Of a stretch of DNA of 64,000 bases, positions 23,839 through 62,209 are shown in pieces. Below the pieces are notes generated by a model. It was not told the origin of the DNA, ran no database searches, and was given only the letters and a program-made list of their open reading frames with translations. The translations under genes and the position numbers were made by a program. Each line of letters begins with the position of its first letter. Within the stretch, counting starts at the first letter, position 1. The stretch is from an uncultured Planctomycetaceae bacterium (lineage in GTDB: Bacteria; Planctomycetota; Planctomycetia; Isosphaerales; Isosphaeraceae): assembly GCA_963833985.1 (NCBI GenBank), contig CAWIAD010000002.1:5568001-5632000 (forward strand). The letters run 5' to 3'.

Positions 23839-23855
23839 GGAACGAGCCGCGTCCC

Positions 23856-25943: not shown

Positions 25944-26046
25944 GCCGCCTCCCCGATTTCCTGTCGCCTTACCCCAGTAGCTGCAACCGCGCCGGGTCCT
26001 CTAGGCAAGAGTAGACGGGAGAGGCAACGGGAACGCAGCGAGCTCT

Positions 26047-26092
26047 CGATTCTAGCTACGTCTCCGTTTCCCCTCCGTCCCCGTTTCCCCTC
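26047..26092 (+). repeat. Right arm of the 46-bp inverted repeat, followed by a further GTCCCCGTTTCCC unit
   Basis: cgattctagctacgtctccgtttcccctccgtccccgtttcccctc. Confidence 0.85.
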
Positions 26093-41210: not shown

Positions 41211-41573
41211 TCATTGGTCAATCTCGCGGGCCAGGTAGTAATAGAGTGGCTCGCCGTGGATGATCACCGGCTCGAGCGCCTTGGTGACCGGGTTGCGGTC
41301 CATGACCAGGTAGCGCGTGGGCCTGTCCTCGAACACGGCCGTCTTGCCGTCGCGCCCCGTGATCTTGATGACGCCGCGGGCCGGGTCGCGAGTGATCTCG
41401 ACCCTGGGCTTGCGCTTCAGCTCGGCCTCCAGCTCCGCCAGCCGGGCCAGCGTCGCCGGCGCCTCCTCGACGGTCAGCAGTTTTCCGTAGCCGTCATACA
41501 CGTACGTGAAGACCGCCGCATCGGTCTGGGTCTCGCCCGCTTCACGCACTTGGTCCGGCACGTTCCCGTCCAT
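41211..41573 (-). CDS. Small hypothetical protein with one YD-like motif; paralogue of 41657-42079
   Basis: Upstream gaggag RBS, FTYVYDGYGKLLTV, C-terminal FEDRPTRYLVMDRNPVTKALEPVIIHGEPLYYYLARE. Confidence 0.7.
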   Translation of the reverse strand: MDGNVPDQVREAGETQTDAAVFTYVYDGYGKLLTVEEAPATLARLAELEAELKRKPRVEITRDPARGVIKITGRDGKTAVFEDRPTRYLVMDRNPVTKALEPVIIHGEPLYYYLAREIDQ

Positions 41574-41656
41574 TGTGATACTCCTCGCCTGGTTGAAGAT
41601 TCATGCACCCTCGCTCAAAATCCGCCCCTCACAACCCGCCTCGTGAGATCCCTCGA

Positions 41657-42079
41657 TCAATTCCACTGTTCCAAATTCTCATCGGTGTTCACCTGTGGCT
41701 CGTTCCCGTCTTCATCCGCGGCCGTATCGGTTTCTTTCGCCAGGTGGTAATACACCGGGCTGCCCCACTCCATGGCGGGCCTGATCTTGCCCGTGCTGGG
41801 GTCGCGCTCCATGAACAGGAACCGTTGTGGCCGGTCGTCGAACCTGGCTGTCTCCTGGCCTTCGGTGGTCATCTGGATGACATGCCGCGAGTGGTCGTAG
41901 CTCACTTCGGTCGTCGGATCGCCGTCCCACACGAGCGACCGGTACCCGCGCCGCGCCACGCCTTCGCAGAAGTGGTGCGTGCCATCCTCGGTCGTGTAGG
42001 TGGAGATGTACCTGGGATGCTCGGACCTGGACTCGATCAATTCATCGTCCGACGTGCTCATGGCAGCGTTCTCCGTCAA
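41657..42079 (-). CDS. Small hypothetical protein; paralogue of 41211-41573
   Basis: FDDRPQRFLFMERDPSTGKIRPAMEWGSPVYYHLAKE aligns with the neighbour. Start could be 42061. Confidence 0.7.
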   Translation of the reverse strand: MTENAAMSTSDDELIESRSEHPRYISTYTTEDGTHHFCEGVARRGYRSLVWDGDPTTEVSYDHSRHVIQMTTEGQETARFDDRPQRFLFMERDPSTGKIRPAMEWGSPVYYHLAKETDTAADEDGNEPQVNTDENLEQWN

Positions 42080-42119: not shown

Positions 42120-42200
42120 CGCGTCCCCGTTGCGGCTCCTGAGCGTGACGTTCGGCTGGCCGGCGCCGCCGAGCAGGTCGAGCCAGCGAGCATGTTGCCG
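42120..42200 (-). pseudogene. Vestigial start of a fourth Rhs orphan cassette
   Basis: Reads GNMLAGST/GGAGQPNVTLRS with a frameshift, versus GNMLTDSTSGGTGQPSVTLTS in cassette 1. Confidence 0.75.
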
Positions 42201-42290
42201 CGAATCCTCGTAAATCGAAGTACGTGGACGTTCAAGGCTTTATCCATCCTACGCAGATCGCTCGCGATAAGGGGGATGTCCCCTTCAGCC
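42201..42290. repeat. Cassette junction element copy A (90 bp)
   Basis: Ungapped match to 47858-47947 at 75/90 positions (manual count). Confidence 0.9.
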
Positions 42291-42307
42291 CCCCCCATCG
42301 TTTATGG

Positions 42308-42871
42308 CTAGTCGGTGGGGACCGCATCAACAATTGACCAATCGACTCCTTCGGGGAACTTGAATTTGCTGGGAGGCACTAATTTCAGAACGTCAAATCC
42401 GCTAATTAAAAGCAATGCGTAGTACGAGGCCTTCCTCGTAGCAACGGGCTGGCTTTCGTCCGTGAGAATAGCTTTAACAAACCTTATAAATCCTCTGTCA
42501 TTTCGCGACGAGCCCCTGCCAAGCTTGTATATGGCAGCTGCCCTGACACTGTCGTCCGGATCTTGCGACGCGACTCTTTGACACACTTGCAATACTCTGT
42601 CATCTATTCCCCATCTCTCAATTATCATATCTAAAACAGACATCCGAACGGCGGGGTCAGGGTGGTTGAGCCGGGCTTCTGCCGCGGCACGGTCACACTC
42701 TAGGATCTCAGGGCAACTAATTAACAGCCGCGCCCGTCTCTCGTCCCTCCTACGGGAGAATGCACTTTCGACCCTTCGAATCTTGTGTCCGAGATCCGTG
42801 AAAGTCTCGCCAAATCCTCGGACCTCCTCTATTTCCCTGCGGTAGTAGACTCCGTCTTCGTCTCGAGCCAT
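42308..42871 (-). CDS. HEAT-repeat protein, putative immunity partner of cassette 3
   Basis: LNHPDPAVRMSVL, QDPDDSVRAAAIYKLG, DESQPVATRKASYYAL; low GC; directly after tip 3. Confidence 0.75.
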   Translation of the reverse strand: MARDEDGVYYRREIEEVRGFGETFTDLGHKIRRVESAFSRRRDERRARLLISCPEILECDRAAAEARLNHPDPAVRMSVLDMIIERWGIDDRVLQVCQRVASQDPDDSVRAAAIYKLGRGSSRNDRGFIRFVKAILTDESQPVATRKASYYALLLISGFDVLKLVPPSKFKFPEGVDWSIVDAVPTD

Positions 42872-43008
42872 CGCCGCTGCCTCCACAACCGTTCGTGCTA
42901 GAGTGAGGTTACTCTTGACCCATCGACTGTTCACGCAAGCTCGGCTCATTGGAATACTAAGCAGGCCGCCGAGCAAGCGGAATTGAGCATTCTTTAATGA
43001 AGTGCCGC

Positions 43009-44808
43009 TCAGCTTGGTGAGGACAAGCCGCCGGGGCCAGGCGGACTCGCCCCGCCCGGGCCCGGCGGGTTCCCACCGCCAGGCCCCGGCTGCCCGCGTC
43101 GGTTCATAAGCTCGCTTAGCTTTATGAGTAGGTCCTCCATCTTGTCCTTCAACGTGTCTAGGGACTCTCGCATTACACCTTGCACCTGGCTCCAAATCTC
43201 ATCGTCCTCGGGATCGTCTGGGGGCTCGCTGTCATTTCCCAGGACGTCCCAGACGGCCATAGAGCTAGCGATCTTGGCTAGCTCATCCTTAACCGCTTGG
43301 ATTTCTTCCTCAAGCTCCTTGGTTGCGTGAGCCATCATCGCCCGCCCGTATAACTTAATCGCGTACACATTCTGAGCATACTTGATCTTCTGCGTCAGGA
43401 CATCGCCAGCTAGCTTAAAGCTTTGTTCAGCTTGATAGGCCTCGTACCATTGCTCGGAGAGGTGGTACCCGTAGGCCAATTCTGCACCTATGATCGCGGA
43501 GCCCGCTACCGTAATTACGCCGGCGCCCGTGAGCAGCAGTCCTCCTCCGGACGCAATGGCGGTCAGCGTCAAGGCGTTTGAGCCTGTAGCGTCAACAGCG
43601 TTCGTGGTGTTGTTCGAGACGTATCGGTACAAGTTTCGGTCGCCGGCCCTGAACCAATACGGATCTTGTTCCAGGAACCGCCCAACCCCTGCTCCATACC
43701 ACCGCGCGTGATCGTAGTACTGCCCGATCGCGGCGTCCCACTCCATCCCCGTGAACTTGAACCGGTCGCCGTTTCCTCCGCTGCTCTCGCTGAGGATGTC
43801 GCCGTAGCTGTCGTAGACGATGTGGTCCAGCTCGGCACCTGTAGTACTAACGATGTCGCGGATGCTCCCTAACCTGTCGGTCAGATACCACGCCGTTGTG
43901 CCGCCGGACGATGTTCGCGCCAGGATCTCATCCACGGCCGGACCATAGACGTAGCGGGTGAGGAGGGTTCCGGAAGCGCTGAAGTCGGCGTAGGGGTTGG
44001 CGTCAGGACCCTGGCCGTCGTAGACGGTCCACATCTGCGTGCCGTTCGTATCCACTCCGATGCGGTGGTCCAGTGCATCGTAGGTGTAGGTCACCTGCTC
44101 CAGCGTCGTGCCGCCGGAGTTTTTCTCCACCGCGCTCATCATCCGGTTGCGGTCGTCGTAGCTGAACGTCCACACGTTTCCATTCGAGAGCTGAGTCTCG
44201 CCGATCGTGTTGCCCTCGTTGTCGTAGGTGAACGTGTAGCCGCCACCGGATTGCAGCTCGTTGCCCGTGCCTGTCGTGTAGCCCGACATGTTGCGGTTGC
44301 CACCCGAGTCGTAGCTGTAGTTCTCGGTGCGTGAGCCCTTGGCGGTGAGCAGTTCACCTCCGGAGTCATAGCTGTAAGTAACGGTCCCTTCGGCGTTGAC
44401 CTCGGTCGTGACGCGGTTGGCGTTGTCGTAGCCGTAGAGGTACGTCGCCAGCGCCGTGCCCGTACCCGTCTGGTCGGTGATGGTTCCGACTCGATTGGCG
44501 GAATCGTAGACGATCGAGGTATTGACCGAGGTGCCCAGGCCGCCGATGGTGCGCGAGAGCGAGGTGAGCTGGTTGGCCGGGTCGTAGCCGAATAGGATCT
44601 GCGGGCCGGCGGCGCCGTTGTAGCTCGCCGAGATGGTGGTCAGGCGGAACGCAGCGTCGTACTGGTACGTGATGATTCCAGCGTTGCCGGTGATGCTGTC
44701 GCTCAGGCTGGTGCGGTCGTGATAGGCGTCGTAGCCGGAGGTCAATGTCACGCTCGGCTGGTGCGTCCCGCCGCCCGACGTCGCATCGGTCAGCATGTTG
44801 CCGCCGGA
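43009..44808 (-). CDS. Orphan Rhs cassette 3: core fragment plus unique tip (hydrophobic segment and coiled coil)
   Basis: Near-copy of the main gene core ending in NTTNAVDATGS, followed by an unrelated tip of about 190 aa. Confidence 0.88.
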   Translation of the reverse strand, partial: SGGNMLTDATSGGGTHQPSVTLTSGYDAYHDRTSLSDSITGNAGIITYQYDAAFRLTTISASYNGAAGPQILFGYDPANQLTSLSRTIGGLGTSVNTSIVYDSANRVGTITDQTGTGTALATYLYGYDNANRVTTEVNAEGTVTYSYDSGGELLTAKGSRTENYSYDSGGNRNMSGYTTGTGNELQSGGGYTFTYDNEGNTIGETQLSNGNVWTFSYDDRNRMMSAVEKNSGGTTLEQVTYTYDALDHRIGVDTNGTQMWTVYDGQGPDANPYADFSASGTLLTRYVYGPAVDEILARTSSGGTTAWYLTDRLGSIRDIVSTTGAELDHIVYDSYGDILSESSGGNGDRFKFTGMEWDAAIGQYYDHARWYGAGVGRFLEQDPYWFRAGDRNLYRYVSNNTTNAVDATGSNALTLTAIASGGGLLLTGAGVITVAGSAIIGAELAYGYHLSEQWYEAYQAEQSFKLAGDVLTQKIKYAQNVYAIKLYGRAMMAHATKELEEEIQAVKDELAKIASSMAVWDVLGNDSEPPDDPEDDEIWSQVQGVMRESLDTLKDKMEDLLIKLSELMNRRGQPGPGGGNPPGPGGASPPGPGGLSSPS

Positions 44809-44919
44809 GATACACATGGAGCTCAAAGTCCACAGCCGCATTGCCCGCTCCTTAGCGAATAATTACCCTCGCGGATGATAGTGGCAGCCCAAGACTTGCC
44901 CTTCTGACTCATCTTATCT

Positions 44920-44950
44920 GCGATCAGAGGAATGTCCCCTTTGGCTTTCC
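44920..44950. repeat. Cassette junction element copy C (short core)
   Basis: gcgatcagaggaatgtcccctt matches 47921-47942 at 21/22. Confidence 0.85.
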
Positions 44951-44953
44951 TGC

Positions 44954-46051
44954 CTACCTGCCTAGAAGGACGCGGACACCGCTCGGCAACAGCGTTTCAC
45001 AGTCATTCTCAGTAATGCCGGTCGACCTGAGGTCCAACACGCGGAGTTTGGAGAGCCTGCGGAGCCTCGACAGCGACCTGGCCGTTATCGCGGCCCCGCG
45101 GAGGTATAGAACTTCCAAGTTCGGCAACAGCCCGAGCTCAAGCACGTGTGCATCGGTTACTCTGCATCCGGAGAGGTCAAGAGTTATTAACCCCGCCCAC
45201 CGGGGATCAGCCAGCCAGCTCAGCCCGGTTACCGCCGTGTCGGATGCGTAAAGATACCTAACCCTGGGCGCGTCCACCGCTATCAAGCCTCGCGCGCTTA
45301 CACGATCACCTGAAACATCCAGCAGCTCCAACCCTGGTAAGCGCGCACGGGCAAGCCCCTCATCACTCACGCCGGTGCAAGCCACCGATAATGAACGTAG
45401 GGAGGGAAGTGCACTGAGGATCGGCAGCGCCTTATCCGTTATCTGCGTATGGCTGAGCCCTAGGGCCTTCAGGCGTCTCAGTCTCTCGAGTTCTCGGATG
45501 CCGCGGTCTGTCACCTTGCAGCCGGCTAGATTGATCTCCTCTACGTTTTCGTTGCGTCCCAGGTATCTCAGAGCGATGTCCGTCACGGCCGTGTCGCCGA
45601 GAACGATTACCCTCAGTCGCTTGAGCCGATCGATCCCCTCCAGCCAATCGTCCCTCACCGCAGACTCGCGTAGCACCAACTCCTCCATTTCCCCGAGGCA
45701 AAACGAATCTTGAAACGTCGCGCGATCCAACTCCGTGTTACGAGTGAAGTCAAGCCCCAGGATGTATCTCCTCCCCTCGCGTGGCTCCTCGAACACCACG
45801 GCTCCAATGTTCTCTAGTCGGCGGAGTACGCGGCCTCTCTCTTGGGCTTGCTGCTGGGAGATGGGCGCGCCCGCAACGGGCTGGCACGCAGGAGCGATCC
45901 CTAGGCCCCACTCCCGCGGATCCGCAAAGGGGAGGCAGTTAGCCGCGAGCAGGGTAACAAACAGAGGAACTCTGCAATAGGTCCGAGCACGGAGCTCACG
46001 CTCAGGTGGGTAGCCCGGCTTACGACCAACGCTGTGGACGGGGTGTTTCAT
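44954..46051 (-). CDS. Leucine-rich-repeat protein, putative immunity partner of cassette 2
   Basis: Repeated LxxLxLxxTxVTDxGL units (LKALGLSHTQITDKAL, LDLSGCRVTD), hydrophobic N-terminal segment. Confidence 0.85.
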   Translation of the reverse strand: MKHPVHSVGRKPGYPPERELRARTYCRVPLFVTLLAANCLPFADPREWGLGIAPACQPVAGAPISQQQAQERGRVLRRLENIGAVVFEEPREGRRYILGLDFTRNTELDRATFQDSFCLGEMEELVLRESAVRDDWLEGIDRLKRLRVIVLGDTAVTDIALRYLGRNENVEEINLAGCKVTDRGIRELERLRRLKALGLSHTQITDKALPILSALPSLRSLSVACTGVSDEGLARARLPGLELLDVSGDRVSARGLIAVDAPRVRYLYASDTAVTGLSWLADPRWAGLITLDLSGCRVTDAHVLELGLLPNLEVLYLRGAAITARSLSRLRRLSKLRVLDLRSTGITENDCETLLPSGVRVLLGR

Positions 46052-46067
46052 CTCGGGCTTGTCCGCG

Positions 46068-47856
46068 TCACGGTTGCGTTTTACTCTGATTCGACTGTTT
46101 CTGCTGCTGCAACTGCTGCATCATCCCCTTTACAATACTCTGCACAAACTCCTGGGCTGCTTTATTTAGGTCCATATACTGATTCGCGGTATAATGCTTC
46201 TTCCTATACGTCTGCATCTGAGACTGCTCAGAGGTGAGTGGGTAGTAAGCTGTCATGTAGTCATATAGGGTGCCATAGCTGGAGTCACCTCCGATCTTGT
46301 GATGAATCGCCGTGGGCTCCGGATGGTTCGCGTTATTGTTTGTGTAGAACAAATAGGCGTGAAGCATCTCGTGCACTAGCATATCGTAGATCAGGGCGCT
46401 CTCGGTTTTGGGCAGCCTGCCACTCCTCGTTCCTGAGGTAAATCTTCGTAGTGAGATTTGAGTAAGTCCGTGCGAGATAATAACTGTCCTGGTCGAGGAT
46501 TTCCACATCATATTTATCCTTTATTGTATTATAATAGCGCATGTAATCTTTATTTTTTTTGAGATTCTCCATAGCCGCCTCAATTTCCTGTCGGAGGGTG
46601 TCGCTGTCGATCGTCGGAGCCGTATTGGACAAGCCACTCGGGTCGACAAAGTCGGTCACGCCATTGCCGGCGTAGCGGTAGAGATCCGTGTCTCCGGCAC
46701 CGTAGGATGACGGGTCGATTGTTAGGAAGCGTCCGTCTTGCGCCCCATACCACCTCGCGTGATCATAGTATTGCTGAATTGCCGCATCCCACTCCATCCC
46801 CGTGAACTTGAACCGATCCCCGTTGGATCCGCCACTGCTCTCGGAGAGAATGTTGCCGTAGCTGTCGTAGACCACGTGATCGATGCTCGTTCCGGAAGTG
46901 TTCACGATGTCGCGCACGCTCCCTAACCGGTCGGTGAGATACCAACCGGTCGTGCCGCCGGACGAGGTTCGCGCCAAGATCTCGTCAACGGCTTGCGTCG
47001 AGACGTATCGGGTCAGCAGCGTTCCCGAGCCGTTGAAGTCGGCGTAGGGATTTGCGTCGGCGCCCTGGCCGTCGTACACGGTCCACATCTGGGTGCCGTT
47101 GGTGTCGACCCCGATGCGGTGGTCCAGCGAGTCGTAGGTGTACGTCACCTGCTCCAGGGTCGTGCCGCCGGAATTCTTCTCCACGGCGCTTGTCATCCGG
47201 TTGCGATCGTCGTAGCCAAAGGTCCAGACGTTTCCATTCGAGAGCTGGGTCTCGCCGATCGTGTTGCCTTCCTTGTCGTACGTGAACGTGTAGCCGCCGC
47301 CGGATGACAGCTCGTTGCCCGTGCCCGTAGTGTAGCCGGACATGTTCCGGTTGCCACCCGAGTCATAGGAATAATTCTCGGTGCGCGAGCCCCGCGCTGT
47401 GAGCAATTCACCACCGGAGTCATAGCCGTAGGTGACCGTGCCCTCGGCGTTGACCTCGGTGGTCACGCGGTTGGCGTTGTCGTAGCCATAAACATACGTT
47501 GAGAGTGCCGTTCCAGTGCCCGTCTGGTCCGTGATCGTGCCGACACGGTTGGCGGCATCATAGACGATCGAGGTGTTCACCGCCGTGCCCGAGCCGCCGA
47601 TGGTGCGGTCGATCGAGGTGAGCCGGTTGCCCGGGTCGTACCCCAGCACCACCTGCGGCCCGGCGCTGCCGTTGTAGCTGGCCGAGATGTTCGTCAGCCG
47701 AAAAGCAGGGTCGTACTGGAAGGTCGTCACGCCGACATTCCCCGTGATGTTGTCCGTCAAGCTGGTGCGGTCGTGGTACGCGTCGTAGCCGGAGCTCAAT
47801 GTCACGCTCGGCTGGTGGCTGCCCGGACCCGACGTGGAGTCGGTGAGCTGGTTGCC
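46068..47856 (-). CDS. Orphan Rhs cassette 2: core fragment plus HEXXH zinc-metallopeptidase tip (frameshift near 46405)
   Basis: Core ends VDPSGL at about 46630. The AT-rich tip continues in another frame with LIYDMLVHEMLHAYL. Confidence 0.85.
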
Positions 47857-47857
47857 T

Positions 47858-47960
47858 CGAATCCTCGTGAGTCGAATTACGGACACGTTCAAGGCTTTAT
47901 CCATTCTGCGCAATTTGCTCGCGATCAGAGGAACGTCCCCTTCAGCCTCCTTGTCCCTTT
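47858..47960. repeat. Cassette junction element copy B (90 bp plus an extra tgtcccttt unit)
   Basis: cgaatcctcgtgagtcgaattacggacacgttcaaggctttatccattctgcgcaatttgctcgcgatcagaggaacgtccccttcagcc. Confidence 0.9.
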
Positions 47961-48000
47961 TAGCTTTCACGTACAACGCTCAGTAGTGCCCCGGCTGGCT

Positions 48001-48462
48001 TTATTGCACATTGAGATCCTCGTCTCGCGGAATGAGGTAGAGGTCGAGCGAGAGGTCCAAGTTGAGCTGTCCTAGCCTGCCAAGTTGCGACGGGTATAGA
48101 TTGACCACGCCGAGGCCCTGACTTGACGCCCAGAAGCAAGATACTCTCGTCACACACCGACGCGCTTGAAGCTGCGAGAACTCATGGCGCGATGGCCAAA
48201 GCTTGTCCAGGATCCAGTCGACGTGTCGCCCGAGGTCCCTTGAATCGACGATCCCCTTCGACGAAAGGAACCAAGCGGTTACCGGGTACGACCGTTGCAA
48301 TCGCTCGTGCACACGTTCGCCGCGACGCTGAATCTGGCTTGGTGATATACCCAAACTCGCAGTGACCAAATCCGGATCGATTTCCTCGCTGTAGATGCAA
48401 AGTGTCGCGTATGTCCTAGAGCACGTCTCGGTTTGGTCGCAGTATCGCTCGTTATTTGGCAA
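48001..48462 (-). CDS. DUF4279-family protein, putative immunity partner of cassette 1
   Basis: TYATLCIYSEEIDPDLVTASLGISPS...WFLSS...HVDWILDKL...LGQLNLDLSLDLY. Start is uncertain (TTG 48462). Confidence 0.8.
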   Translation of the reverse strand: MPNNERYCDQTETCSRTYATLCIYSEEIDPDLVTASLGISPSQIQRRGERVHERLQRSYPVTAWFLSSKGIVDSRDLGRHVDWILDKLWPSRHEFSQLQARRCVTRVSCFWASSQGLGVVNLYPSQLGRLGQLNLDLSLDLYLIPRDEDLNVQ

Positions 48463-48631
48463 TGGCCCCGCCCCCGCCCGTCCGCGTCTTTGTTTTCTTG
48501 CCGCCCCGAGCCCTGCCCAGGAGATGCTCACCTTCCGGCGCGGGTGCACCGGTGTGCACCAAGTATGATCGATCACGAAGTGGCGACCGGGAAACGCAGT
48601 GACCGCGTCTACGCTTGTCCCGGCCTCCGAC

Positions 48632-50285
48632 CTACGTGTCTGGCGGGCAGTATCTCGGATCGACTTGCCACATCTGCCACTCAAATATGAAAAACGGGGC
48701 GACTGACACGGTCCCACGGCTCCGACCGAGCTCCACCAGCTCCCTGGCCAGCACTTCCCACTGCGAATAGCTCAGGTTATCATTGGGGCTTCTGCCAGTA
48801 GAATCCTTGAAATCATGCCCATAATCCGAGAGCTCGTATGGATTCAGGTTGTACCTCTTGGCCAGTTCCACGATGATCTTCCATCCCGAGGTCGCACTGA
48901 GCGTAGGAGTGGGGCCGGGCCTTGTGGGCGCCTGAGGCGGCACTGGTGGCGACGCCCGCCCAGGCCTGTTATGGCTTGGCGTCATGCCCTGCACGGGCTC
49001 ATCCGCCGCCGTTCCACCGCCGCTCATCCCGCTCGGGTCAGTGTAAGCAAGCGGCCGATCAGCCGCATAGCGGTAGACGTTGTCGTCCCCGGCCGAGAGA
49101 CCCAGCGGATCCTGCTCCGCAAACCTCCCGACCCCCGCCTCATACCACCTCGCATGATCATAATACTGCTCGATCGCCGCATCCCACTCCATGCCCGCGA
49201 ACTTGAACCGATCGCCGTTGGAGCCCCCGCTGCTCTCGGAGAGGATATTGCCGTAGCTGTCGTAGACGACGTGATCGATGCTCGTGCCGGACGTATTGAC
49301 GATGTCGCGAACGCTTCCTAACCTGTCGGCCAGGTACCAGGCGGTTGTGCCGCCCGAGCTGGTGCGGGCGAAGAGCTCGTCGACGGCTGGGCCGGAGACA
49401 TATCGCGTCAGTAATGTCCCTGAGCCGTTGAAGTCGGCGTAGGGGTTGGCGTCGGCGCCCTTTCCGTCGTACACGGTCCACATCTGAGTGCTGTTGGTGT
49501 CCACGCCGATGCGATGGTTCAGGGCATCATACGTATACGTTACCTGCTGGAGCGTCGTCCCGCCCGAATTCTTCTCCACGGCGCTGGTCATCCGGTTGCG
49601 ATCGTCGTAGCCGAACGTCCAGACGTCGTGAGTCGAGAGCTGCGTCTCGCCGATCGTGTTGCCTTCCTTGTCGTACGTGAACGTGTAGCCGCCGCCGGAC
49701 TTTAGCTCGTTACCCGTGCCGGTGGTGTAACCCGTCATGGTGCGGTTGCCACCCGAGTCATAGCTGTAGTTTTCCGTCCGCGAGCCGCGGGCGGTCAGTA
49801 GTTCACCACCGGAGTCATAGCCGTACGTGACGGTCCCCTCGGCGTTGACCTCGGTGGTCACGCGGTTGGCGTTGTCGTAGCCGTAGACGTAGGTTGATAG
49901 CGCCGTGCCGGTGCCCGTCTGATCGGTGATGGTACCGATGCGATTGGCGGCATCATAGACGATCGATGTGTTCACCGCCGTGCCTGAGCCGCCGATGGTG
50001 CGCGAGATCGAATTCTGGCGGTTGCCCGGGTCATAGCCCAGGATCACCTGGGGGCCGGCCGTGCCGTTGTAGCTGGCCGAGATGTTCGTCAGCCGGAAGG
50101 CGGCGGCGTACTGGAACGTCGCCAGCCCGGCGTTGCCAGCGATGTTGTCGGTCAGGGTGATGCGGTCGTGGTAAGCGTCGTAGCCGGAGGTGAGCGTGAC
50201 GCTCGGCTGGCCCGTGCCGCCGGAAGTCGAGTCGGTCAGCATGTTGCCGCCGGAGTCGTGGGCATGAGTGATGGTAGCGTAGTTA
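48632..50285 (-). CDS. Orphan Rhs cassette 1: core fragment plus unique tip of about 130 aa
   Basis: Homology to the main gene begins at NYAT. Core ends PLAYTDPSGM. Tip contains ELSDYGHDFKDSTGRSPNDNLS. Confidence 0.88.
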
Positions 50286-50293
50286 ATCAAAAC

Positions 50294-50384
50294 AATGACT
50301 CCTGACATCTTATCTCTGACACTTTATCCTCTCACCTTATCCCCCTCCCTGACACCTTATCCCCCTTTGAAACCTTATCCCCCT
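50294..50384. repeat. Junction D: five degenerate tandem (TGAC)ACCTTATCCCCCT units
   Basis: cctgacatcttatct ctgacactttatcct ctcaccttatccccct ccctgacaccttatccccct ttgaaaccttatccccct. Confidence 0.85.
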
Positions 50385-51463
50385 CCGTCGCTGGGTGGCC
50401 CGTGCTGAGGTGCTGCCTCCCGCGCGGGCTTGATGGGAGCGGCGCTCTTGGCCCTCGCCAACGACGGTACGTCCCAGAGCTTGATCGTATGATCCCGGCT
50501 GCCGGTGGCGAGCAGTTTCCCGTCCGAAGAAAACGCCACACAGCGTACAACGTTGCCATGGCACTTCAGCACCGTGAGGACGTCGAACGAGTCGGGCTCG
50601 AAAAGGTGCAAGGTCCCGTCCCGGCATCCCGCGGCCAGCAACTTGCTGTCAGGCGAAAAAGCGACCGAGTCTACATGGCCATGGAAACCGCGGAGCGTCG
50701 CTTTCAGATTGTTGGTATTCATGTACCACACCCGAGCCGTGTCGTCATCTCCGCCGGAGGCGATCCACCTAGTGTCTGGGGAGAAGCAGACGGAGTTTGG
50801 CATTCGGATGTGGCCAGTCAACGTGACACGCGACCGCCAAGTCGTCGTGTCCCAGACAACAACATCATGCCCCCTGGTGGTCGCCATGCAGGAACCATCA
50901 GTGGAAAACGCCACGCAGTTGCTAAAAGGAAGACTCGGCAACGCCTCCCCGGCAACGGATGTCACCACCCGATCAGTCCGGAGATCGTAGAGCAAAGTCT
51001 GCCCTTTCAGGCCCGCGCTAGAGATGGCAAGGATCGAGCCGTCGCGAGAGTACGCGATAGCGAAGATCGTATCCTGAGTGTTGTGTATCTCCCTATTTAG
51101 CCCGGTGGCTACATCCCAAAGCTCGACGCTGCTGTCCTGAATAATGCGCCGATGGTTAACCCTCAGCGAATGATATGACGAGGTGGAGGCGACCTTCTTG
51201 CCGTCGGGTGAAAAGGCAACTCTGCCGATGGACGAGCGCTTCGAAAAACATGCTCGTTCCGCGCCCACTACTGTGTCCCATAGTCTGATAGTCTGATCAT
51301 CGTTACCGGCTGATGCCAAGAGCTTTCCGTCAGGAGAAAAGGACACGCAGCTCACCTCGTCCTTGTGGCCAACCAGAGTAGCAATCGGCTGGACGTCTTG
51401 CGCTTTGAGCGGCCAATGGTTGGCGATCGCTAGACAGACGATGGGGCACAGCAACTTGTGCAT
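50375..51463 (-). CDS. Exported WD40 beta-propeller protein, putative cognate partner of the main Rhs tip
   Basis: Signal-peptide-like start, about 7 GH...FSPDG...WD repeats, lower GC. Confidence 0.9.
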   Translation of the reverse strand: MHKLLCPIVCLAIANHWPLKAQDVQPIATLVGHKDEVSCVSFSPDGKLLASAGNDDQTIRLWDTVVGAERACFSKRSSIGRVAFSPDGKKVASTSSYHSLRVNHRRIIQDSSVELWDVATGLNREIHNTQDTIFAIAYSRDGSILAISSAGLKGQTLLYDLRTDRVVTSVAGEALPSLPFSNCVAFSTDGSCMATTRGHDVVVWDTTTWRSRVTLTGHIRMPNSVCFSPDTRWIASGGDDDTARVWYMNTNNLKATLRGFHGHVDSVAFSPDSKLLAAGCRDGTLHLFEPDSFDVLTVLKCHGNVVRCVAFSSDGKLLATGSRDHTIKLWDVPSLARAKSAAPIKPAREAAPQHGPPSDGGG

Positions 51464-51542
51464 GACAATTCCTTACTCGAATTTAGGGGAGGCAAGGGAC
51501 GGTCCAGCTACGACGGCAGCAAAAGCGAGAGGGGTCATGAGA

Positions 51543-54500
51543 TCATCCAGGGCCGTTCCCTCCGCCTCCGGGGCGGCCACCGGCAACGGGGTTACCGTCT
51601 ACTCCAACCACCCCCGGACCCACCACCGGGTTCGGCTCTTGCGACGGTTGTGGCAGCACCATCGAAGGATGCTCACCAGCGAGGATCTGGCGCACCCACT
51701 GCTGCGCTTGCTCGAACATCCACTTCTCGACCTCAAAGAGTTTGTTCGCAAGCTCCGCTTGCTGTTCGGCGTACTGACGCTGTAGTTCCTCCACATCCGC
51801 GTCTTGCACCTGCACTTGTAGTTCGATTCCCGCCCACATTGCCTCATCCTGTTTGGCCTGGTGTTCTTGAAGGGCCCGATACCAGGCCCTGTACCTAGGC
51901 ATCCAATCCCTCCACCATTTCCATTGTTCTTTGTTCGCGTTCAGGTCCGGTGCCCATTTGGGACTACTGGGGTATGGCTTACCACTGGGATAGGCCATCG
52001 GGCCGCCAGGCCTTGGCGGAATGTTCCAAGGAGCATCTCCTGGCCCCGGAAAGTTGCCCCATCCACGGCCCAGTGGAACTTGCAGCCCGCTTGGGTCAGT
52101 CGCGTTGCCCGGGGAACCGTGAACGTAGCGGTACTCATTCGGGTCGCCAGCCCTGAACCCGAGCGGATCGAGTTGACCGAACCTTCCTACCACGGGCCCA
52201 TACCACCTCGCATGGTCATAATACTGCCCAATCGCCGCATCCCACTCCATCCCCGTGAACTTGAACCGGTCGCCGTTGGATCCTCCGCTGCTCTCGGAGA
52301 GGATATTGCCGTAGCTGTCGTACACGACGTGGTCGATGCTCGTGCCCGAGGTGCTCACGATGTCGCGCACGCTTCCTAACCTGTCGGCCAGATACCAGGC
52401 GGTTGTGCCGCCCGAGCTGGTGCGGGCGAAGAGCTCGTCGACGGCCGGGCCGGAGACGTATCGGGTGAGCAGCGTGCCTGAGCCGTTGAAGTCGGCGTAG
52501 GGATTGGCGTCGGCGCCCTGGCCGTCGTACACGGTCCACATCTGGGTGCCGTTCGTGTCCACGCCGATGCGGTGATCCAGCGCATCGTAGGTGTACGTCA
52601 CTTGTTCCAGCGTGGTGCCGCCCGAGTTTTTCTCCACCGCGCTGGTCATCCGGTTGCGGTCGTCGTAGCCGAAGGTCCAGACGTCGTGAGTGGAGAGCTG
52701 CGTCTCGCCGATCGTGTTGCCTTCCTTGTCATACGTGAACGTGTAGCCGCCGCCGGAGCTCAACTCGTTGCCCGTGCCCGTGGTGTAGCCGGTCATGTTC
52801 CGGTTCCCACCCGAGTCATAGCTATAGTTTTCCGTCCGCGAGCCTCGTGCGGTCAGTAGTTCACCACCGGAGTCATAGCCGTACGTGACCGTCCCCTCGG
52901 CGTTGACCTCGGTGGTGACGCGGTTGGCGTTGTCGTAGCCATAAACATACGTTGAGAGTGCCGTGCCGGTGCCCGTCTGGTCGGTGATCGTGCCGACACG
53001 GTTGGCCGGGTCGTAGACGATCGAGGTGTTCACAGACGTGCCCGAGCCGCCGATGGTCCGCGAGATTGACGTCTCGCGGTTGCCCGGGTCGTACCCCAGC
53101 ACCACCTGCGGGCCGGCGCTGCCGTTGTAGCTGGCCGAGATGGTCGTCAGCCGAAACGCAGGGTCGTACTGGAACGTCGTCACGCCGACGTTGCCCGTGA
53201 TGTTGTCCGTCAAGCTGGTGCGGTCGTGGTACGCGTCGTAACCGGAAGTCAATGTCACGCTCGGCTGGTGGCTGCCCGGACCCGACGTGGAGTCGGTGAG
53301 CTGGTTGCCACCCGAGTCATAGGTGAAGCTCAGGGTCGCGTAGTTATCCGTGATCTTGGTCAGCTCGTTATCGGCGTCGTAGGTGAGAGTGACAAGATTC
53401 GTCACGCCGCCGGAGGCGCTGTACCAGGTCTCGCCGGTCTCCTGGCCGCCGGAGTCGTACGAGTACGTGACCACCCGGCCGTCGCGGTCGGTGGACGCGA
53501 TGAGCTGGTCATCATAGTTGTACAGGTAGGTCGCCGTGTTACCCAGCGGATCGGTCATCGTGGTCAAACGGTCGGCCGAGTCGTAGCCCCAGGTCGTGTG
53601 GTTGCCCAGCGGATCGGTCAGAGTCGTCATCCGCCCGGCCGCGTCATAAGCCATGGTGGTGGTGTTGCCCAGCGGGTCGACGATCGTCGTGGCCCGGTTG
53701 TCGGCGTCGTAGAGCGTGGTCGTCACGTTCCCCAGCGCGTCCTTGACCGTCTGCTGGTTGCCTCCCGAATCGTAGCCGTAGACCGTGGTATGCCCCAGCG
53801 CGTCGGTCACTGTGGTCAACCGGTTCATCGTATCATAAGCATATTGCGTCGCGTGGCCGTTCGCGTCGGTCATCCCCGTCATGTTGCCCACGCCGTCATA
53901 CCCGTAGGTCGCCGTGTGATTATTGGCGTCCGTGTAGGTGGTCAGCCGGTCGTCCTTGTCGTAGAAGAACGACTCGGTCGAGCCCCCGCTGTGGCCGGGG
54001 CTGGTCACGGTCGATTGCTTGCCGGTGGGCGTGTAGGCGTAGGTCGTGAGGTTCCCCAGGCCGTCCTCGACCGTCGCCACCCAGCCCCGGTCGTTGTACG
54101 TCGTCGTCGTGATCCGGCCCAGCGGGTCGGCCACCTGGATCACCTGCCCCTCGGCATCGTAGGTCGTGGTCGTCACCGCGTTGGCGCTGGCGGTCAACGG
54201 GGCCGTGACCACCGTCGGCCGGTTGAGGGCATCATAAGAAATCGACGTGATGCGGCTCATGGGATCGGTGATCTTGATCAGGTTGCCGCCCGAGTCGTAG
54301 CCGTACACCGTCACCCGCGACAGCGGCGCCGTGACGGTTACCGCGCGGTTCATCGCATCGTAGGAGATGGTCGTCGTGCGGGCGATCTGGCCCGATGGCG
54401 TCGGGTCCTGTTCGACGATCATGTTGCCACCTGAATCGTAGACAAACGTCGTCCGGTTCGTCAACGGGTCGGTCATGCCCGTTTCGCGGTTCATGGCGTC

Positions 54501-57359
54501 GTAGCTGTAGGTCGTGGTGTTCGACCGCTGGTCGGTGACGGAGGTGATGTTCCCCTGGTTGTTGTAGCCGTAGAGGATCTTGGTGCCGTCCGGGTTCAGG
54601 ACCGTGGTGGCGCGGTCCTGGCTGTCGTACTGAATGCTCGTGGTATGCCCGTTGGCATCCTTGAGCGTGGCCAGCATGCCGTCGCCGGTGTAGGTCATGG
54701 TCGTCAGGTTGCCCATCGGGTCCTGCGTGACCGTCAGGTTGCCGTGGCTGTCGTAATCGTACGTGTACACATGGTTGTTGGCGTCGGTGAACTGGGTGAC
54801 CTCGGCGAAGCTGTTGTAGCTGTACTGGTCGTAGTTCAGGTCGGGGTAGGTGTGCTGGGTGATGTTCCCCTTGCTATCGTAGGTGTACTTGTCGATCCGG
54901 TTCAGGCGGTCGATGGTGACGGTGGCCAGGCCCATGGACGCGCCGCTGCCGATGCGATCGAAGCTGGCCACGTTGCCCAGCGGGTCGACGGCCACGTTGG
55001 TCAGCCCCTGGCCGTTCCAGTCGGGCAGGACCGAGGTCGTGTTGCTGTTGGGATCGGTGTAGGTGCTGGCGGAGGTGGCCAGCAGCACGGCCGCCGTGCC
55101 CCCGCCGGAGGTGCCGCTGTTGGTGAATCCCGCTTCCTGGCCGGGGAAGAACTCCTCGGTGCTGCTGTCCGGGCGGGTGATCGTCGAGGCGCGCTGGGCC
55201 GAGTCGTACGCAACCGTCACGGTCTTCGAGTTCGGATCCGTCACCTGGGTCAGGCGGCCCGAGCCGTCATAGGCATAGCCCCAGGTCGAGTTGTCGGGCA
55301 AGGTCGCACCGGTGAGGTTGGAACCGCTGTGGGTGAAGGTCGTGTAGCGGCCGGCCGGATCCTTGATCGACTGCAAGTAGCCCCCGCTGTACGAGAAGGT
55401 CGTGATGTTGCCGTACGGGTCGGTGATGGTGCTGAGGTTGCCGCTGGAGTAGGCGTAGGTGATGTGCAGGCCGTTGGTGTCGATCGTGGCCGTCTCGTGG
55501 CCGCCGGAGTCGAAGCTGATCTGGGTGCCGTCGGTCAGGGTTCTCGTGAACGTCCCTCCCGAGTTCTCCAGCAGCGTCGAGAACTCGCCGGGCGGGTCGG
55601 TGAACGTGCCGCCTCCGCTGCCGAAGCTGCCGCTGAACCAGAGGCTGCGGCCACCACTGCCCAGGTCGAGGATCACCCCGCCGGAAGCCGGCGTGATCTT
55701 CTCCAGGCCCGAGACCGTCCAGCCGTCGCCGATGGCGCTGGAGGACTGGTTGAGCACGGTCATGGTGCCGGTGAGCGTCGTGGTGGTCATGGTGCCACGG
55801 TAATCGACGACCGTGGCCGTGTCGTTGTAACGCCCGGTGCTCTGTCCGGTCATGTTGGCTTGCAGCGCCATCTGCTGGATGTCGCCGGGCATGAGCTGGC
55901 TGGTGTTGTCATACCAGGTCGAGCCGGTGTAAACCGTGGTGCCGCCGGTGGTGCTCACGCTGAGCTGGCCGCTGTCCTGCGACGGGAGCGTCAGCGACGA
56001 ACTGAGCGCATGCGGGATGTCGACGATGGGGCGTGGATCCGCCGTGAGCGAGTTGTAGGTCAGGGCGAGCGCCGGGACGTTGGGATTATAGCTGGGCAGG
56101 TTGATGTCCGTGTTGAGCGCGCCGCTGGTGGCATCCACGGAGACGTTATGGCTGTCGAAGGCGGGCGCCTGGGGCTGCACCAGGTCAGGGGGTAGCGAGC
56201 CTGGCCAGGTGGGGTCGCCGCCACCGCTCATGCCCGAGCTGGACCCGGCGGGAACGAGGAAGTCATACGTGAACGTCTCGGTATGCGAGTTGGTATCGGT
56301 CACCGAGAGCGTGACGCTGTTCACGCTGGGCGCGGGGTTGACGCTGCCGTTGCCCCAGGTGAAGGTCAGGTCGTAGCCGGTGGTTCCCGAGACGTGGTTG
56401 ACCAGCGTCAGGTTGGTGGTGTTCCAGCTGATCGAGCTGACCGTGGTGTTCTCCACCTGGGCGCGGAGATCGACGAACTTGTTGAACGTGGCCAGCTGGT
56501 AGGCGCCCGGGAACATCACCTCACCCTGCGTATAATCGACCACGTACACGGGGAAATAGGGAAACGACCCGAGGCTCGCCCCGGAGGAATTGCCGATCGT
56601 CGGGTCGATGTTCGGGTTGATGCCGCCGCCGGAGCTCGACCCCGAGCTCGCCGGCGGTGGCGGCTGGGGTGGAATGGCGCTGGGAGGCGCACCGGCATGG
56701 GGCGGAGGTGAGGCGCCCGGCTCCGGGCTGCCGGCGCCCGGGTTGGGCGTTGGCGGGACAGTGGGCTGAGACGCGCTGGAGGCGGCTGCCAGCAGGGCGG
56801 AGGAGGCCGCCTGGTTGCTGCCGCTCGAACCCGGCGCGGGAACCTTCAGCGGCGTGATCGCGCCGCGGTTTGCAGTAGCCGCTGGCGCACTACCGCCGGC
56901 GCCTGTGCCCAGGTTGATCACCTGCCCGGCCCCCTGGCGCTGCGCCGGGTGCCAGGGAGGCGTGATGCCTGTCACACCGTTCGAGGCCGGGCTTTGCAGG
57001 GGTAGCAGGCTTAGCCAGTCGCCCGGCGCCGCTGGCGCCGGCACGATGGAGACGGGAACGAGGCCTTGTGCATTGCCCGCGCCGCCGGTTGTTCGCGGCC
57101 GCGCCGCGGCGGAGTTGAGAAAAGTCGCCGCTCGCGCCGTGGTGCCGGCGCTCGCGGGGGCATTCTGTCCAGGAGTTGCACCGCTTCCCCGGCCGGGCCG
57201 GGCCGCGGTGCCGGCAAGCTGCGCCTTGCTCGCCGCCGACAGACCCAGGAGGGAATCCAACCCCAGGGGCAGCCCCATGCTCAGCGCCGTCAGACTGATC
57301 GGTTCCGTGATCATTATCCGGAGCTCGCATTGTTCCAGGCGATCGAACTTCCTGGCCAT
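51543..57359 (-). CDS. Large Rhs/YD-repeat polymorphic toxin (1938 aa)
   Basis: Pro/Ala/Gly/Ser-rich N-region, dozens of YD repeats, core end FKFTGMEWD...YYDHARWY...GRFGQLDP...SPGNATDPSGL, unique tip of about 180 aa. Confidence 0.96.
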   Translation of the reverse strand: MARKFDRLEQCELRIMITEPISLTALSMGLPLGLDSLLGLSAASKAQLAGTAARPGRGSGATPGQNAPASAGTTARAATFLNSAAARPRTTGGAGNAQGLVPVSIVPAPAAPGDWLSLLPLQSPASNGVTGITPPWHPAQRQGAGQVINLGTGAGGSAPAATANRGAITPLKVPAPGSSGSNQAASSALLAAASSASQPTVPPTPNPGAGSPEPGASPPPHAGAPPSAIPPQPPPPASSGSSSGGGINPNIDPTIGNSSGASLGSFPYFPVYVVDYTQGEVMFPGAYQLATFNKFVDLRAQVENTTVSSISWNTTNLTLVNHVSGTTGYDLTFTWGNGSVNPAPSVNSVTLSVTDTNSHTETFTYDFLVPAGSSSGMSGGGDPTWPGSLPPDLVQPQAPAFDSHNVSVDATSGALNTDINLPSYNPNVPALALTYNSLTADPRPIVDIPHALSSSLTLPSQDSGQLSVSTTGGTTVYTGSTWYDNTSQLMPGDIQQMALQANMTGQSTGRYNDTATVVDYRGTMTTTTLTGTMTVLNQSSSAIGDGWTVSGLEKITPASGGVILDLGSGGRSLWFSGSFGSGGGTFTDPPGEFSTLLENSGGTFTRTLTDGTQISFDSGGHETATIDTNGLHITYAYSSGNLSTITDPYGNITTFSYSGGYLQSIKDPAGRYTTFTHSGSNLTGATLPDNSTWGYAYDGSGRLTQVTDPNSKTVTVAYDSAQRASTITRPDSSTEEFFPGQEAGFTNSGTSGGGTAAVLLATSASTYTDPNSNTTSVLPDWNGQGLTNVAVDPLGNVASFDRIGSGASMGLATVTIDRLNRIDKYTYDSKGNITQHTYPDLNYDQYSYNSFAEVTQFTDANNHVYTYDYDSHGNLTVTQDPMGNLTTMTYTGDGMLATLKDANGHTTSIQYDSQDRATTVLNPDGTKILYGYNNQGNITSVTDQRSNTTTYSYDAMNRETGMTDPLTNRTTFVYDSGGNMIVEQDPTPSGQIARTTTISYDAMNRAVTVTAPLSRVTVYGYDSGGNLIKITDPMSRITSISYDALNRPTVVTAPLTASANAVTTTTYDAEGQVIQVADPLGRITTTTYNDRGWVATVEDGLGNLTTYAYTPTGKQSTVTSPGHSGGSTESFFYDKDDRLTTYTDANNHTATYGYDGVGNMTGMTDANGHATQYAYDTMNRLTTVTDALGHTTVYGYDSGGNQQTVKDALGNVTTTLYDADNRATTIVDPLGNTTTMAYDAAGRMTTLTDPLGNHTTWGYDSADRLTTMTDPLGNTATYLYNYDDQLIASTDRDGRVVTYSYDSGGQETGETWYSASGGVTNLVTLTYDADNELTKITDNYATLSFTYDSGGNQLTDSTSGPGSHQPSVTLTSGYDAYHDRTSLTDNITGNVGVTTFQYDPAFRLTTISASYNGSAGPQVVLGYDPGNRETSISRTIGGSGTSVNTSIVYDPANRVGTITDQTGTGTALSTYVYGYDNANRVTTEVNAEGTVTYGYDSGGELLTARGSRTENYSYDSGGNRNMTGYTTGTGNELSSGGGYTFTYDKEGNTIGETQLSTHDVWTFGYDDRNRMTSAVEKNSGGTTLEQVTYTYDALDHRIGVDTNGTQMWTVYDGQGADANPYADFNGSGTLLTRYVSGPAVDELFARTSSGGTTAWYLADRLGSVRDIVSTSGTSIDHVVYDSYGNILSESSGGSNGDRFKFTGMEWDAAIGQYYDHARWYGPVVGRFGQLDPLGFRAGDPNEYRYVHGSPGNATDPSGLQVPLGRGWGNFPGPGDAPWNIPPRPGGPMAYPSGKPYPSSPKWAPDLNANKEQWKWWRDWMPRYRAWYRALQEHQAKQDEAMWAGIELQVQVQDADVEELQRQYAEQQAELANKLFEVEKWMFEQAQQWVRQILAGEHPSMVLPQPSQEPNPVVGPGVVGVDGNPVAGGRPGGGGNGPG

Positions 57360-62117: not shown

Positions 62118-62209
62118 GACAGTCCCCTCCTGTTCACCCGGTAGCACAGCAGCACTTGAAGTGCAGAGCTGGAATTGCATGAGAATCGAGTGGGCCGTCG
62201 TGACAGTAG

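Follow-up and report, generated by a model that had tools for sequence, protein, structure and literature searches.

A planctomycete Rhs array in which the shared start of the orphan cassettes was probably copied by recombination

In an uncultured planctomycete of the Isosphaeraceae, a full-length Rhs gene (main) and the orphan cores lying downstream of it appear to have exchanged DNA recently, and the start point common to the orphans is probably an old junction that was copied along with each recombined tip. In the proposed mechanism, a crossover between two cores would release a circle that carries one core's end with its tip and partner gene, followed by the leader and the beginning of the next core. 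On re-entering the main gene, such a circle would displace the old tip downstream, behind the same leader and start. The repeats found at the head of the leaders may mark the founding, non-homologous joins, which a nicking transposase or the insertion of a repeat would have made. By analogy with the family, the tips would be toxins directed against competing bacteria and the partners would be the cognate immunity proteins.

Organization of the array

Within the window (the whole stretch of 64,000 nucleotides that was analysed), the array comprises a complete Rhs gene, three orphan cassettes of core, tip and partner (c1 to c3) and a 62-bp stub (c4). Every gene of the array is on the minus strand. 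From the main gene onward, the features are:

51543..57359, minus: full-length Rhs/YD-repeat gene (main), 1938 aa counted from the first ATG
51543..52082, minus: main-gene tip A0 (179 aa, GC 0.60), without family
50375..51463, minus: WD40 partner gene, hydrophobic N-terminus
50286..50376, minus: junction type 1, stuttered GATAAG(G/A)TGTCAG repeats, the final TIRYT-type terminal repeat abutting the core
48632..50308, minus: orphan c1, core from residue ~1339 and tip X (49024-48632)
48001..48462, minus: DUF4279 partner gene of c1
47857..47949, minus: junction type 2, ~95-bp non-Rhs leader headed by AAGGGGAC, motif at 47940
46068..47856, minus: orphan c2, core from Gly1351 and a tip with an HExxH motif (46629-46068, GC 0.47)
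44954..46051, minus: LRR partner gene of c2
44826..44944, minus: junction type 3, motif at 44939, sharing its first ~22 nt with the type-2 leader and differing thereafter
43009..44841, minus: orphan c3 with tip A3 (43578-43009); its open frame has an in-frame ATG and an AGGAG
42308..42871, minus: HEAT-repeat partner gene of c3
42140..42290, minus: c4, type-2 leader (motif at 42283) and 62-bp frameshifted core stub
41211..42079, minus: two small related ORFs at the end of the array
38425..40782, minus: GT2/TPR glycosyltransferase gene, right flank

The main protein contains RHS_repeat (PF05593) 19 times, Rhs_assc_core (TIGR03696) and TIGR01643, and its core terminates at DPSG (~52083). Judging from the N-termini of relatives, its true start probably lies ~15 codons earlier, near 57404. 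The N-terminal region is common to 62 full-length relatives; the first 620 aa gave no match in Pfam. The repeats and the core ending in DPxG, the variable tip after DPxG with its adjacent partner gene, and orphan fragments that are homologous to the main gene and exchange with it are those of an Rhs polymorphic toxin with orphan modules. The features of an Rhs effector linked to a T6SS, a PAAR N-terminus or a neighboring vgrG or eagR, are absent, and neither vgrG nor PAAR stands beside the locus, the single vgrG match being unlinked, at 1.18 Mb of contig C2. Viral contigs yielded no relative and no match to the leader. Seven plasmid records matched, each at less than 43% identity.

The first-pass annotation described unrelated tips of lower GC, each with its own partner. 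The tips are indeed unrelated, with no BLASTP match at E<0.1 among seven tip pieces, and they are accompanied along the array by WD40, DUF4279, LRR and HEAT partners; the WD40 gene is, from its position, likely an immunity gene. A clearly lower GC applies to the c2 tip only, the other tips being at 0.59-0.61 as compared with 0.62-0.64 in the cores. HExxH motifs are present in two tips, and none of the tips matched a named toxin family. Families of orphan tips occur on full-length Rhs in other genomes: tip A3 is related to full-length Rhs tips in relatives, and the second piece of the c2 tip is 36% identical to the tip of the full-length protein P0016. Tip X has relatives at other Rhs ends and in two non-Rhs proteins; overall, tips in relatives are mostly unrelated. 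Neither tip X nor the small array-end ORF had a usable match in the ESM Atlas.

Start points of the orphan cores

Core-tail repeats were mapped by self-BLAST. The threefold downstream repetition of the core tail noted earlier is borne out, with E=0 in each case, for c1 (50285-49068, 1223 bp, 85.7% identity), c2 (47856-46744, 89.1%) and c3 (44825-43619, 81.3%). A fourth, reduced copy is also present, not as ~80 bp of core but as 62 bp of core (42201-42140, E=2e-9) behind a non-Rhs leader of ~90 bp. That the copies begin at nearly the same position holds to within 37 bp of the main core, to which all four starts are confined: c1 corresponds to main position 53346 (residue ~1339), c3 to 53332 (residue ~1343 by BLAST, 1349 by profile), and c2 and c4 both to 53309 (Gly1351).

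A second locus and mosaic cores

Overlooked in the earlier reading were the shared leaders and a second, paralogous locus, located 0.93 Mb away, which has the same starts but, at two of three positions, tips of its own. Six different tips are found across the two loci. It is also closed by a homolog of the two small ORFs, and the GT2/TPR right flank is 97% common to both loci, shrunken copies of it occurring elsewhere too.

All seven cores, counted over both loci, are mosaic and contain long stretches of identity, and the main genes and first orphans have reciprocally swapped identical tracts of 280-420 bp, which the published circle-and-displacement model would predict. Their frames are open, and dN/dS lies at 0.05-0.19 for each of the 21 core pairs. 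The c1 core of the array is that of the second-locus main gene across core nt 553-1088, with one difference; conversely, the main core of the array is that of the second-locus c1 across nt 580-755 and 832-1111. Haplotypes in the swapped regions diverge by 6-15 sites per 90 nt. Excision at ~1100 followed by re-entry at ~600 would produce this reciprocal pattern. As nt 90-370 of the second-locus c1 are main-like, the circle model needs an extra conversion. In the first 60 core nt, c1, c3, c4 and the stubs have one haplotype, 10-24 sites away from the main genes, which points to a single old orphan lineage, whereas c2 does not differ from main as far as the junction.

The two loci also share 1573 bp with one mismatch (window 49158-47584), running from the end of the c1 core through tip X, identical in both c1 cassettes, the DUF4279 gene and the leader into the c2 core. 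This shared unit extends from core to core and not from start to start. Reciprocally mosaic cores, together with paralogous loci that bear unlike tips at one and the same position, support the exchange of tips by recombination described for enterobacterial Rhs. Since no tip is carried by both a main gene and an orphan in this genome, a completed swap is deduced from the cores only.

Tips differ between the loci and starts and leaders are kept. As the published model copies an existing start with the moving DNA, no special machinery is required for starts to be shared. For the same reason, the fixed start invoked by the first-pass annotation is by itself insufficient to establish that cassettes arise as defined units. 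Of that idea there remains the sharp join, described below, at a repeat of transposase type, which is suggestive but unproven.

Leaders and terminal repeats at the junctions

Each orphan start is preceded by a short non-Rhs leader headed by a terminal-inverted-repeat motif of the TIRYT/RAYT HUH transposase type, resembling the motifs that flank the genes for such transposases in this genome. One may envisage that such a transposase makes cassettes as defined units, by nicking DNA in single-stranded form at this terminal repeat and attaching units of repeat, leader and core behind partner genes that were newly acquired, with homologous recombination only mixing the cores later. Although we regard this origin as rather doubtful, several observations favor it. 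The c1 junction scores high as a TIRYT repeat and has stuttered partial copies of the kind found at TIRYT genes: its score is 16.3, and that of its second-locus equivalent 18.5, on a matrix derived from 19 TIRYT flanks in other genomes, a score of 16 having a background rate of ~2e-6 per site in contig C1. On subtype matrices, c2, c4 and two stubs score 8.3-14.9; the c3 motif lies 4 nt outside the scored interval. Assignment to TIRYT-type terminal repeats is strong for c1 and moderate for c2, c4 and the stubs.

The ~95-bp leader occurs at nine strong sites and the DNA upstream is unrelated right from the motif edge. At least seven unrelated upstream sequences meet one leader within ~10 nt of the motif and, across eight leader contexts, an upstream identity of 0.78 has fallen to 0.24-0.30 within a distance of 10-20 nt from it. 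The type-2 leader joins the core at the GGC-AAC codons, and the same leader with the same core codon is found in c2, c4, the second-locus c2 and four dispersed stubs, so that these starts are copies and not the outcome of independent decay. The c4 stub belongs to this dispersed family, matching two distant members at 136/145 and 134/145 positions and c2 at 110/143. Among 61 genomes searched, the leader was found in no other. Homologous recombination cannot account for the unrelated upstream sequences, at least seven in number, that one leader meets. Nor does it explain the starts within residues 1334-1364 common to junction types 1 and 2 and to the orphans of three genomes of the same genus (G001, G008, G010).

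Against a role of the transposase, the array is devoid of a TIRYT gene. A TIRtron has a TIRYT gene between two inverted repeats; the repeats here are single and co-directional, and no PF01797 match was found in the window. The leader has no supported hairpin either: RNAalifold proposes a stem, but single-strand z-scores range from -1.2 to +1.7 without compensatory pairs, Rfam gave no match, and the stable subterminal hairpin of a REP/REPIN or IS200-type end is absent. Whether leaders are decayed upstream core was assessed by shuffling. The resemblance is clear for c1 and the G001 orphan (0/500 shuffles), partial for c3 (1/500) and not established for the type-2 leader (21-233/500).

Starts, repeats and transposases in relatives

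Array orphans in 13 other genomes of Isosphaeraceae start anywhere in residues 1174-1674, only 2 of 15 near the start point seen here. Of 67 truncated copies in other genomes, 62 begin outside residues 1334-1364. The scatter of starts in homologous loci, by which the first-pass annotation would have its proposal refuted, is found at the level of the family.

Clear repeats are present at the orphan junctions of four relatives (G031, G033, G094, G117), in line with involvement of the transposase. Enrichment in relatives is, however, marginal: repeats were found at 16/67 truncated-copy starts versus 18%, or 9/67 versus 7.5% (p 0.06), and at 5/15 array-orphan starts versus 14% (p 0.046), or 3/15 versus 8% (p 0.13). 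In other families the count was 0/30. A test with a broad regular expression gave no enrichment (16/57 versus 29% of control windows). This genome holds four TIRYT-like matches, one of them 1.2 kb from an Rhs remnant, which again favors the transposase; TIRYT proteins are encoded at C2:3098916, 2427218 and 6400549. Such proximity is nevertheless equalled by IS110, with 8/31 TIRYT and 7/43 IS110 within 10 kb of tips (Fisher p 0.38), and co-location is therefore not a specific sign. Among the best 150 of 191 matches, counted by eye, ~8 IS4/IS5-type elements were also near tips.

It may also be imagined that selection, and not inheritance, fixes the start: orphans might be translated as short Rhs proteins (~410 core residues plus the tip), or stable recombination might be limited to the non-repetitive tail of the core. 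In-frame ATGs stand just 5′ of the cores of c1, c2 and c3 (50308, 47904 and 44841), cassettes that the first-pass annotation called silent, that of c3 being preceded by AGGAG at 6-7 nt; frames are open and dN/dS is low; residues 1334-1364 are also a start band in five other genomes; and expressed orphans are reported for Salmonella in the available part of one study (PMC7043789). Yet low dN/dS would equally follow if the orphans descend from working genes, the c2 tip is split by a frameshift at about 46,400, no promoter-like site was found 5′ of c1-c3, and the many truncated copies starting outside the band speak against a favored position, so that we hold this explanation to be improbable. 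Finally, a stacking of strain variants in tandem by the assembler is hardly credible despite a contamination estimate of 3.9%, because the copies are only 81-89% identical, far too different for collapsed or stacked alleles, the 10.2-Mb genome is in two contigs without N, and the c1-to-c2 junction recurs at the second locus with different outer flanks.

Relation to known systems

As far as the accessible sections of the reports on Enterobacteriaceae describe them (PMC2935791, PMC3150448, PMC3967940), Rhs arrays there have the same composition, a full rhs gene followed by core fragments with unrelated tips and partners, and the same homologous main-orphan exchange and circle model. Their pieces of core vary in length and are mostly without starts, whereas the planctomycete fragments are long (~1.2 kb) and near-equal, in frame with an ATG and provided with repeat-headed leaders; moreover, reciprocal exchange can be read inside one planctomycete genome, and the locus has no adjacent vgrG/PAAR. 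The circle model of tip displacement was proposed in this very form by Jackson 2009 (PMC2935791) and could, in the portion available of its description, be supported only circumstantially, and main-orphan fusion is shown in Salmonella in the corresponding portion of Koskiniemi 2014 (PMC3967940). The accessible part of Zhang 2012 (PMC3482391) describes polymorphic toxin systems, planctomycetes included, with similar toxin-immunity cassettes, HExxH tips and LRR and HEAT partners; for polyimmunity loci it names XerC/D recombinases, not HUH transposases.

TIRtrons and TIRYT (RAYT group 1, TnpA-Y1 subclass 2.1; PMC3733652, PMC6006769) have alike terminal repeats of the GGGG[AT][CG]A[CG] and GGTGTCAG types, stuttered copies, dispersed repeat families and transposases of the kind encoded by this genome; they differ in that the Rhs cassettes here are each headed by a single repeat, in an array without a transposase gene. 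The word Rhs does not occur in the main texts of Di Nocera 2013 (PMC3733652) and Quentin 2018 (PMC6006769). Our literature search, which covered main texts, found no paper linking Rhs to REP/RAYT/TIRYT repeats and none on IS insertion in YD repeats that makes the Rhs link. For TnpA-REP beside prochlorosin genes, a role of this HUH transposase as diversifier of a variable gene family was proposed from co-location, and the same authors later saw no strong evidence for cause, according to the part of the preprint at hand (bioRxiv 10.1101/2020.03.09.984088). Transposase group and cargo are different in that case, and the same caution applies here.

The array itself is a known weapon-swapping system. 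The repeat-headed leaders at orphan starts are new, and offer an unusual, tentative hint that a transposase may take part. A domesticated TIRYT/RAYT HUH transposase acting as a cassette maker, cutting at terminal repeats and fusing captured tip-immunity DNA to repeat-leader-core while recombination loads the main gene, is a speculative possibility that we consider unlikely. If it fails, the locus would be an Rhs array of the ordinary kind, from a phylum that has received little study. If it is true, it would provide a host function for group-1 RAYTs, none being given in the literature examined, and would explain the origin of the first junctions in orphan arrays. The importance of the locus is modest, and comes from the preserved reciprocal exchange and from junctions that offer concrete substrates for the question of cassette making by TIRYT. 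Two paralogous loci of one genome preserve reciprocal exchange between main gene and orphan, and so bring sequence evidence for the circle model.

The Rhs array and its cassettes

The window corresponds to positions 5,568,001-5,632,000 of contig C2 in a 10.16-Mb genome assembled as two contigs with no N. The minus strand carries every gene of the array, and the nearest named matches to its Rhs core are from Isosphaeraceae planctomycetes.

57359-51543, minus strand: main Rhs gene (1938 aa; 19 RHS repeats and an RHS-associated core)

Self-BLAST shows that the terminal 1.1-1.2 kb of this gene is repeated three more times at 81-89% identity, in the orphans c1, c2 and c3 (core, tip and partner gene). 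On main-gene coordinates, the orphans start at 53346 (c1), 53332 (c3) and 53309 (c2 and the stub c4), a span of 37 bp, which confirms the first-pass annotation as to repetition from nearly one core position. The reduced fourth copy described there is present, but its core measures 62 bp by self-BLAST, not about 80 bp. Each cassette indeed has its own tip and partner: the tips are mutually unrelated, and the partner genes encode WD40, DUF4279, LRR and HEAT proteins. A lower GC content of the tips holds for c2 (0.47, the only clearly low one) but not for the others (0.59-0.61, against 0.62-0.64 in the cores). An in-frame ATG precedes the core in 3/3 orphans (c1, c2, c3). A frameshift near 46,400 divides the c2 tip into two pieces, the second of which contains HEMLH and has 36% identity to the tip of a full-length Rhs protein, P0016.

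Other features of the window and of the array ends are:

41211-42079, minus strand, and L001:4774-5067, minus strand: small related ORFs closing both arrays (one of the ORFs has 12 unnamed homologs of about 112 aa, 57-64% identity, and weakly matches a single RHS repeat, E 0.0016)
62420-63791, minus strand: IS1380-family transposase, in two frames
61581-62219: orphan immunity-like gene, no family
23793-23855 / 26030-26092: inverted pair of 63-bp repeats, 83% identical and separated by 2.2 kb, surrounding a DDE transposase match at C2:5592121
48635-48910, minus strand: short helical region of tip X, the c1 tip (invariant K, R-P-D, Y, E), shared with three further Rhs tips and with two proteins that are not Rhs; Pfam, NCBIfam and Atlas give it no family name

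Predicted functions

The arginine-rich N-terminus is conserved, has no Pfam match and resembles planctomycete export motifs. No PAAR was found, nor any vgrG next to the array, one vgrG occurring elsewhere, unlinked. Rhs tips are toxins and their partners immunity proteins by family, according to Zhang 2012 (PMC3482391). By such family knowledge the present tips are putative toxins and their partners putative immunity proteins; no tip matched a named family.

A second locus and exchange between cores

A paralogous locus, B (C2:4.673-4.685 Mb, 92.7% aa), differs from that of the window, A, in main tip and partner. Its c1 has the same tip X and DUF4279 gene, and its c2 the same leader (the non-Rhs DNA before the core) and start, with a different tip. 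Similarity stops at a GT2/TPR gene that both have and, on the other side, some 480 bp before the main gene begins, so the two contexts differ.

Seven in-frame cores from both loci were aligned; dN/dS is 0.05-0.19 across 21/21 pairs. Between core nt 553 and 1088, c1 of A equals the main gene of B except at one site, and at 580-755 and 832-1111 the main gene of A is identical to c1 of B; in these exchanged tracts, the two haplotypes are 6-15 sites apart per 90 nt. Tip X is common to both c1 orphans from nt 1096, and the tract common to both loci runs core-to-core through tip, partner and leader over 1573 bp with one mismatch. These reciprocal tracts support the earlier suggestion that orphan tips and partners recombine with the main gene. 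Homologous recombination via circles has been proposed (Jackson 2009, PMC2935791), main-orphan fusion demonstrated (Koskiniemi 2014, PMC3967940) and orphan modules described (Poole 2011, PMC3150448). A circle between main gene and c1, excised near nt 1100 and put back near nt 600, would produce the reciprocal pattern; nt 90-370 of B c1 would require one further conversion. Within this genome, no tip was found to be shared by a main gene and an orphan; relatives of the c2 and c3 tips of A terminate full-length Rhs proteins in other genomes.

Origin of the common orphan start

In the circle model, as read from the figure 6 legend of Jackson 2009 (PMC2935791), the moving DNA would bring an existing orphan start, and equal starts are therefore expected by descent. 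Taken alone, the fixed breakpoint is thus no proof of cassettes made as defined units. A common start inherited by descent is the reading we hold to be probable. Over their first 60 nt, the cores of c1, c3, c4 and of the stubs elsewhere form one haplotype, 10-24 sites from the main genes.

A leader of about 95 bp, beginning AAGGGGAC, precedes c2 and c4. That of c3 has its first 22 nt or so in common with it and diverges afterwards, and stuttered GATAAGGTGTCAG repeats directly precede c1. Among 12 matches listed, a six-copy leader profile gave 9 sites at E<1e-13; identical core codons adjoin the leader at 7/9 of these strong sites, four being far from any full Rhs gene. The leader was found in 0/60 relatives searched. 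Comparing eight leader contexts gives an identity of 0.78 at the motif, against 0.24-0.30 beyond 10 nt upstream. The c4 stub has its closest matches in two distant stubs (4 sites apart; leader plus stub 136/145 and 134/145). A second decayed core piece was found at 9 sites.

Shrunken islands containing the stubs (GT4 fragment, decayed Rhs piece, cargo, leader stub, GT2/TPR), this genome
C2:674-680 kb, 1.281, 1.542-1.547, 1.900, 2.425-2.430, 5.714-5.719 Mb
C1:0.880, 2.081, 2.322 Mb

Among their cargo are IS elements, one TIRYT gene and what looks like a toxin-antitoxin pair. A GT4 fragment also precedes the orphans of another genome, G010. As a hairpin, the leader gave no supported structure.

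Construction of the cassettes by a transposase seems unlikely to us. The motifs at leader starts resemble the terminal repeats of TIRYT transposases. The genome has seven PF01797 matches, and three full TIRYT-like genes have flanking inverted repeats of GGTGTCAG or GGGAC type. These flanks fit the consensus GGGG[AT][CG]A[CG] of Di Nocera 2013 (PMC3733652) and subclass 2.1 of Quentin 2018 (PMC6006769). A matrix of 19 TIRYT flanks from other genomes gave c1 a score of 16.3 in A and 18.5 in B (about 2e-6 per site) and c2-c4 only 5-6. Subtype matrices gave 12.5-12.7 for c1, 10.3 for c2, 8.3 for c4 and 1.2-14.9 for the stubs, and missed c3, the motif of which lies 4 nt beyond the scored stretch. 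Literature searches, at the level of main texts, found no paper tying TIRYT repeats to Rhs junctions.

Relatives bear on the same question. The core occurs (E<=1e-60) in 58/121 genomes of the order. The 118 core ends examined comprised 19 long, 13 at a locus edge, 14 continuing as repeats and 72 counted as truncated, IS-split main genes included; 67/72 lie outside this genome. These 67 start at residues 947-1674 of the main protein, 5/67 within 1330-1365 (three from the same genus). The 15 array orphans of other genomes start at 1174-1674, with 2/15 in that band, so a fixed start does not extend to homologous loci. Repeat motifs occur at 16/67 truncated starts (18% of control windows) or, by another count, 9/67 (7.5%, p 0.06); at array-orphan starts the counts are 5/15 (14%, p 0.046) and 3/15 (8%, p 0.13), and in other families 0/30. 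Of the TIRYT genes, 8/31 have an Rhs tip no more than 10 kb away (0.5 expected); for IS110 the count is 7/43 (p 0.38 between the two). With starts scattered elsewhere, the fixed start is specific to this lineage, and the marginal motif enrichment and the co-location matched by IS110 do not establish a link to transposases in general.

That selection would have fixed orphan length is more doubtful still. An assembly artefact is highly improbable, since a second locus lies in a different context, copies diverge by 11-19% and the assembly has two contigs.

In G043, the complete genome of a planctomycete from a different family, 23 Rhs tips lie in four arrays with short and variable orphans (about 67-495 core residues):

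G043 C1:3.659-3.672, 4.355-4.364, 4.402-4.409, 1.070-1.073 Mb: Rhs arrays

Mobile elements at YD-repeat codons

In seven places, spread over three genomes, Rhs genes are joined at YGYD repeat codons to an element of about 2.7 kb that encodes a large serine recombinase (Resolvase, Recombinase, Zn ribbon), a full gene being split in at least three; the recombinase is possibly an integrase targeting the YD-repeat codon motif. An IS110 element lies at TACGACTC (YDS codons) three times in one genome, in two different repeats, the Rhs gene being visible on either side in two cases. In G085, another unnamed transposase-like gene is found at YD codons in three places (L222, L224, L226).

L207:1904-4575, plus strand: serine-recombinase element
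L190:2496-5190, numbered on the minus strand: serine-recombinase element
L223:1808-4515, plus strand: serine-recombinase element
L133, L210, L211, L216: serine-recombinase element
L072:9128-11264, plus strand: IS110 at YDS codons
L073:861-2972, plus strand: IS110 at YDS codons
L134: IS110 at YDS codons

As for the locus in the window, it is an Rhs displacement array, an already known kind of system, and its common orphan start was probably acquired by descent.
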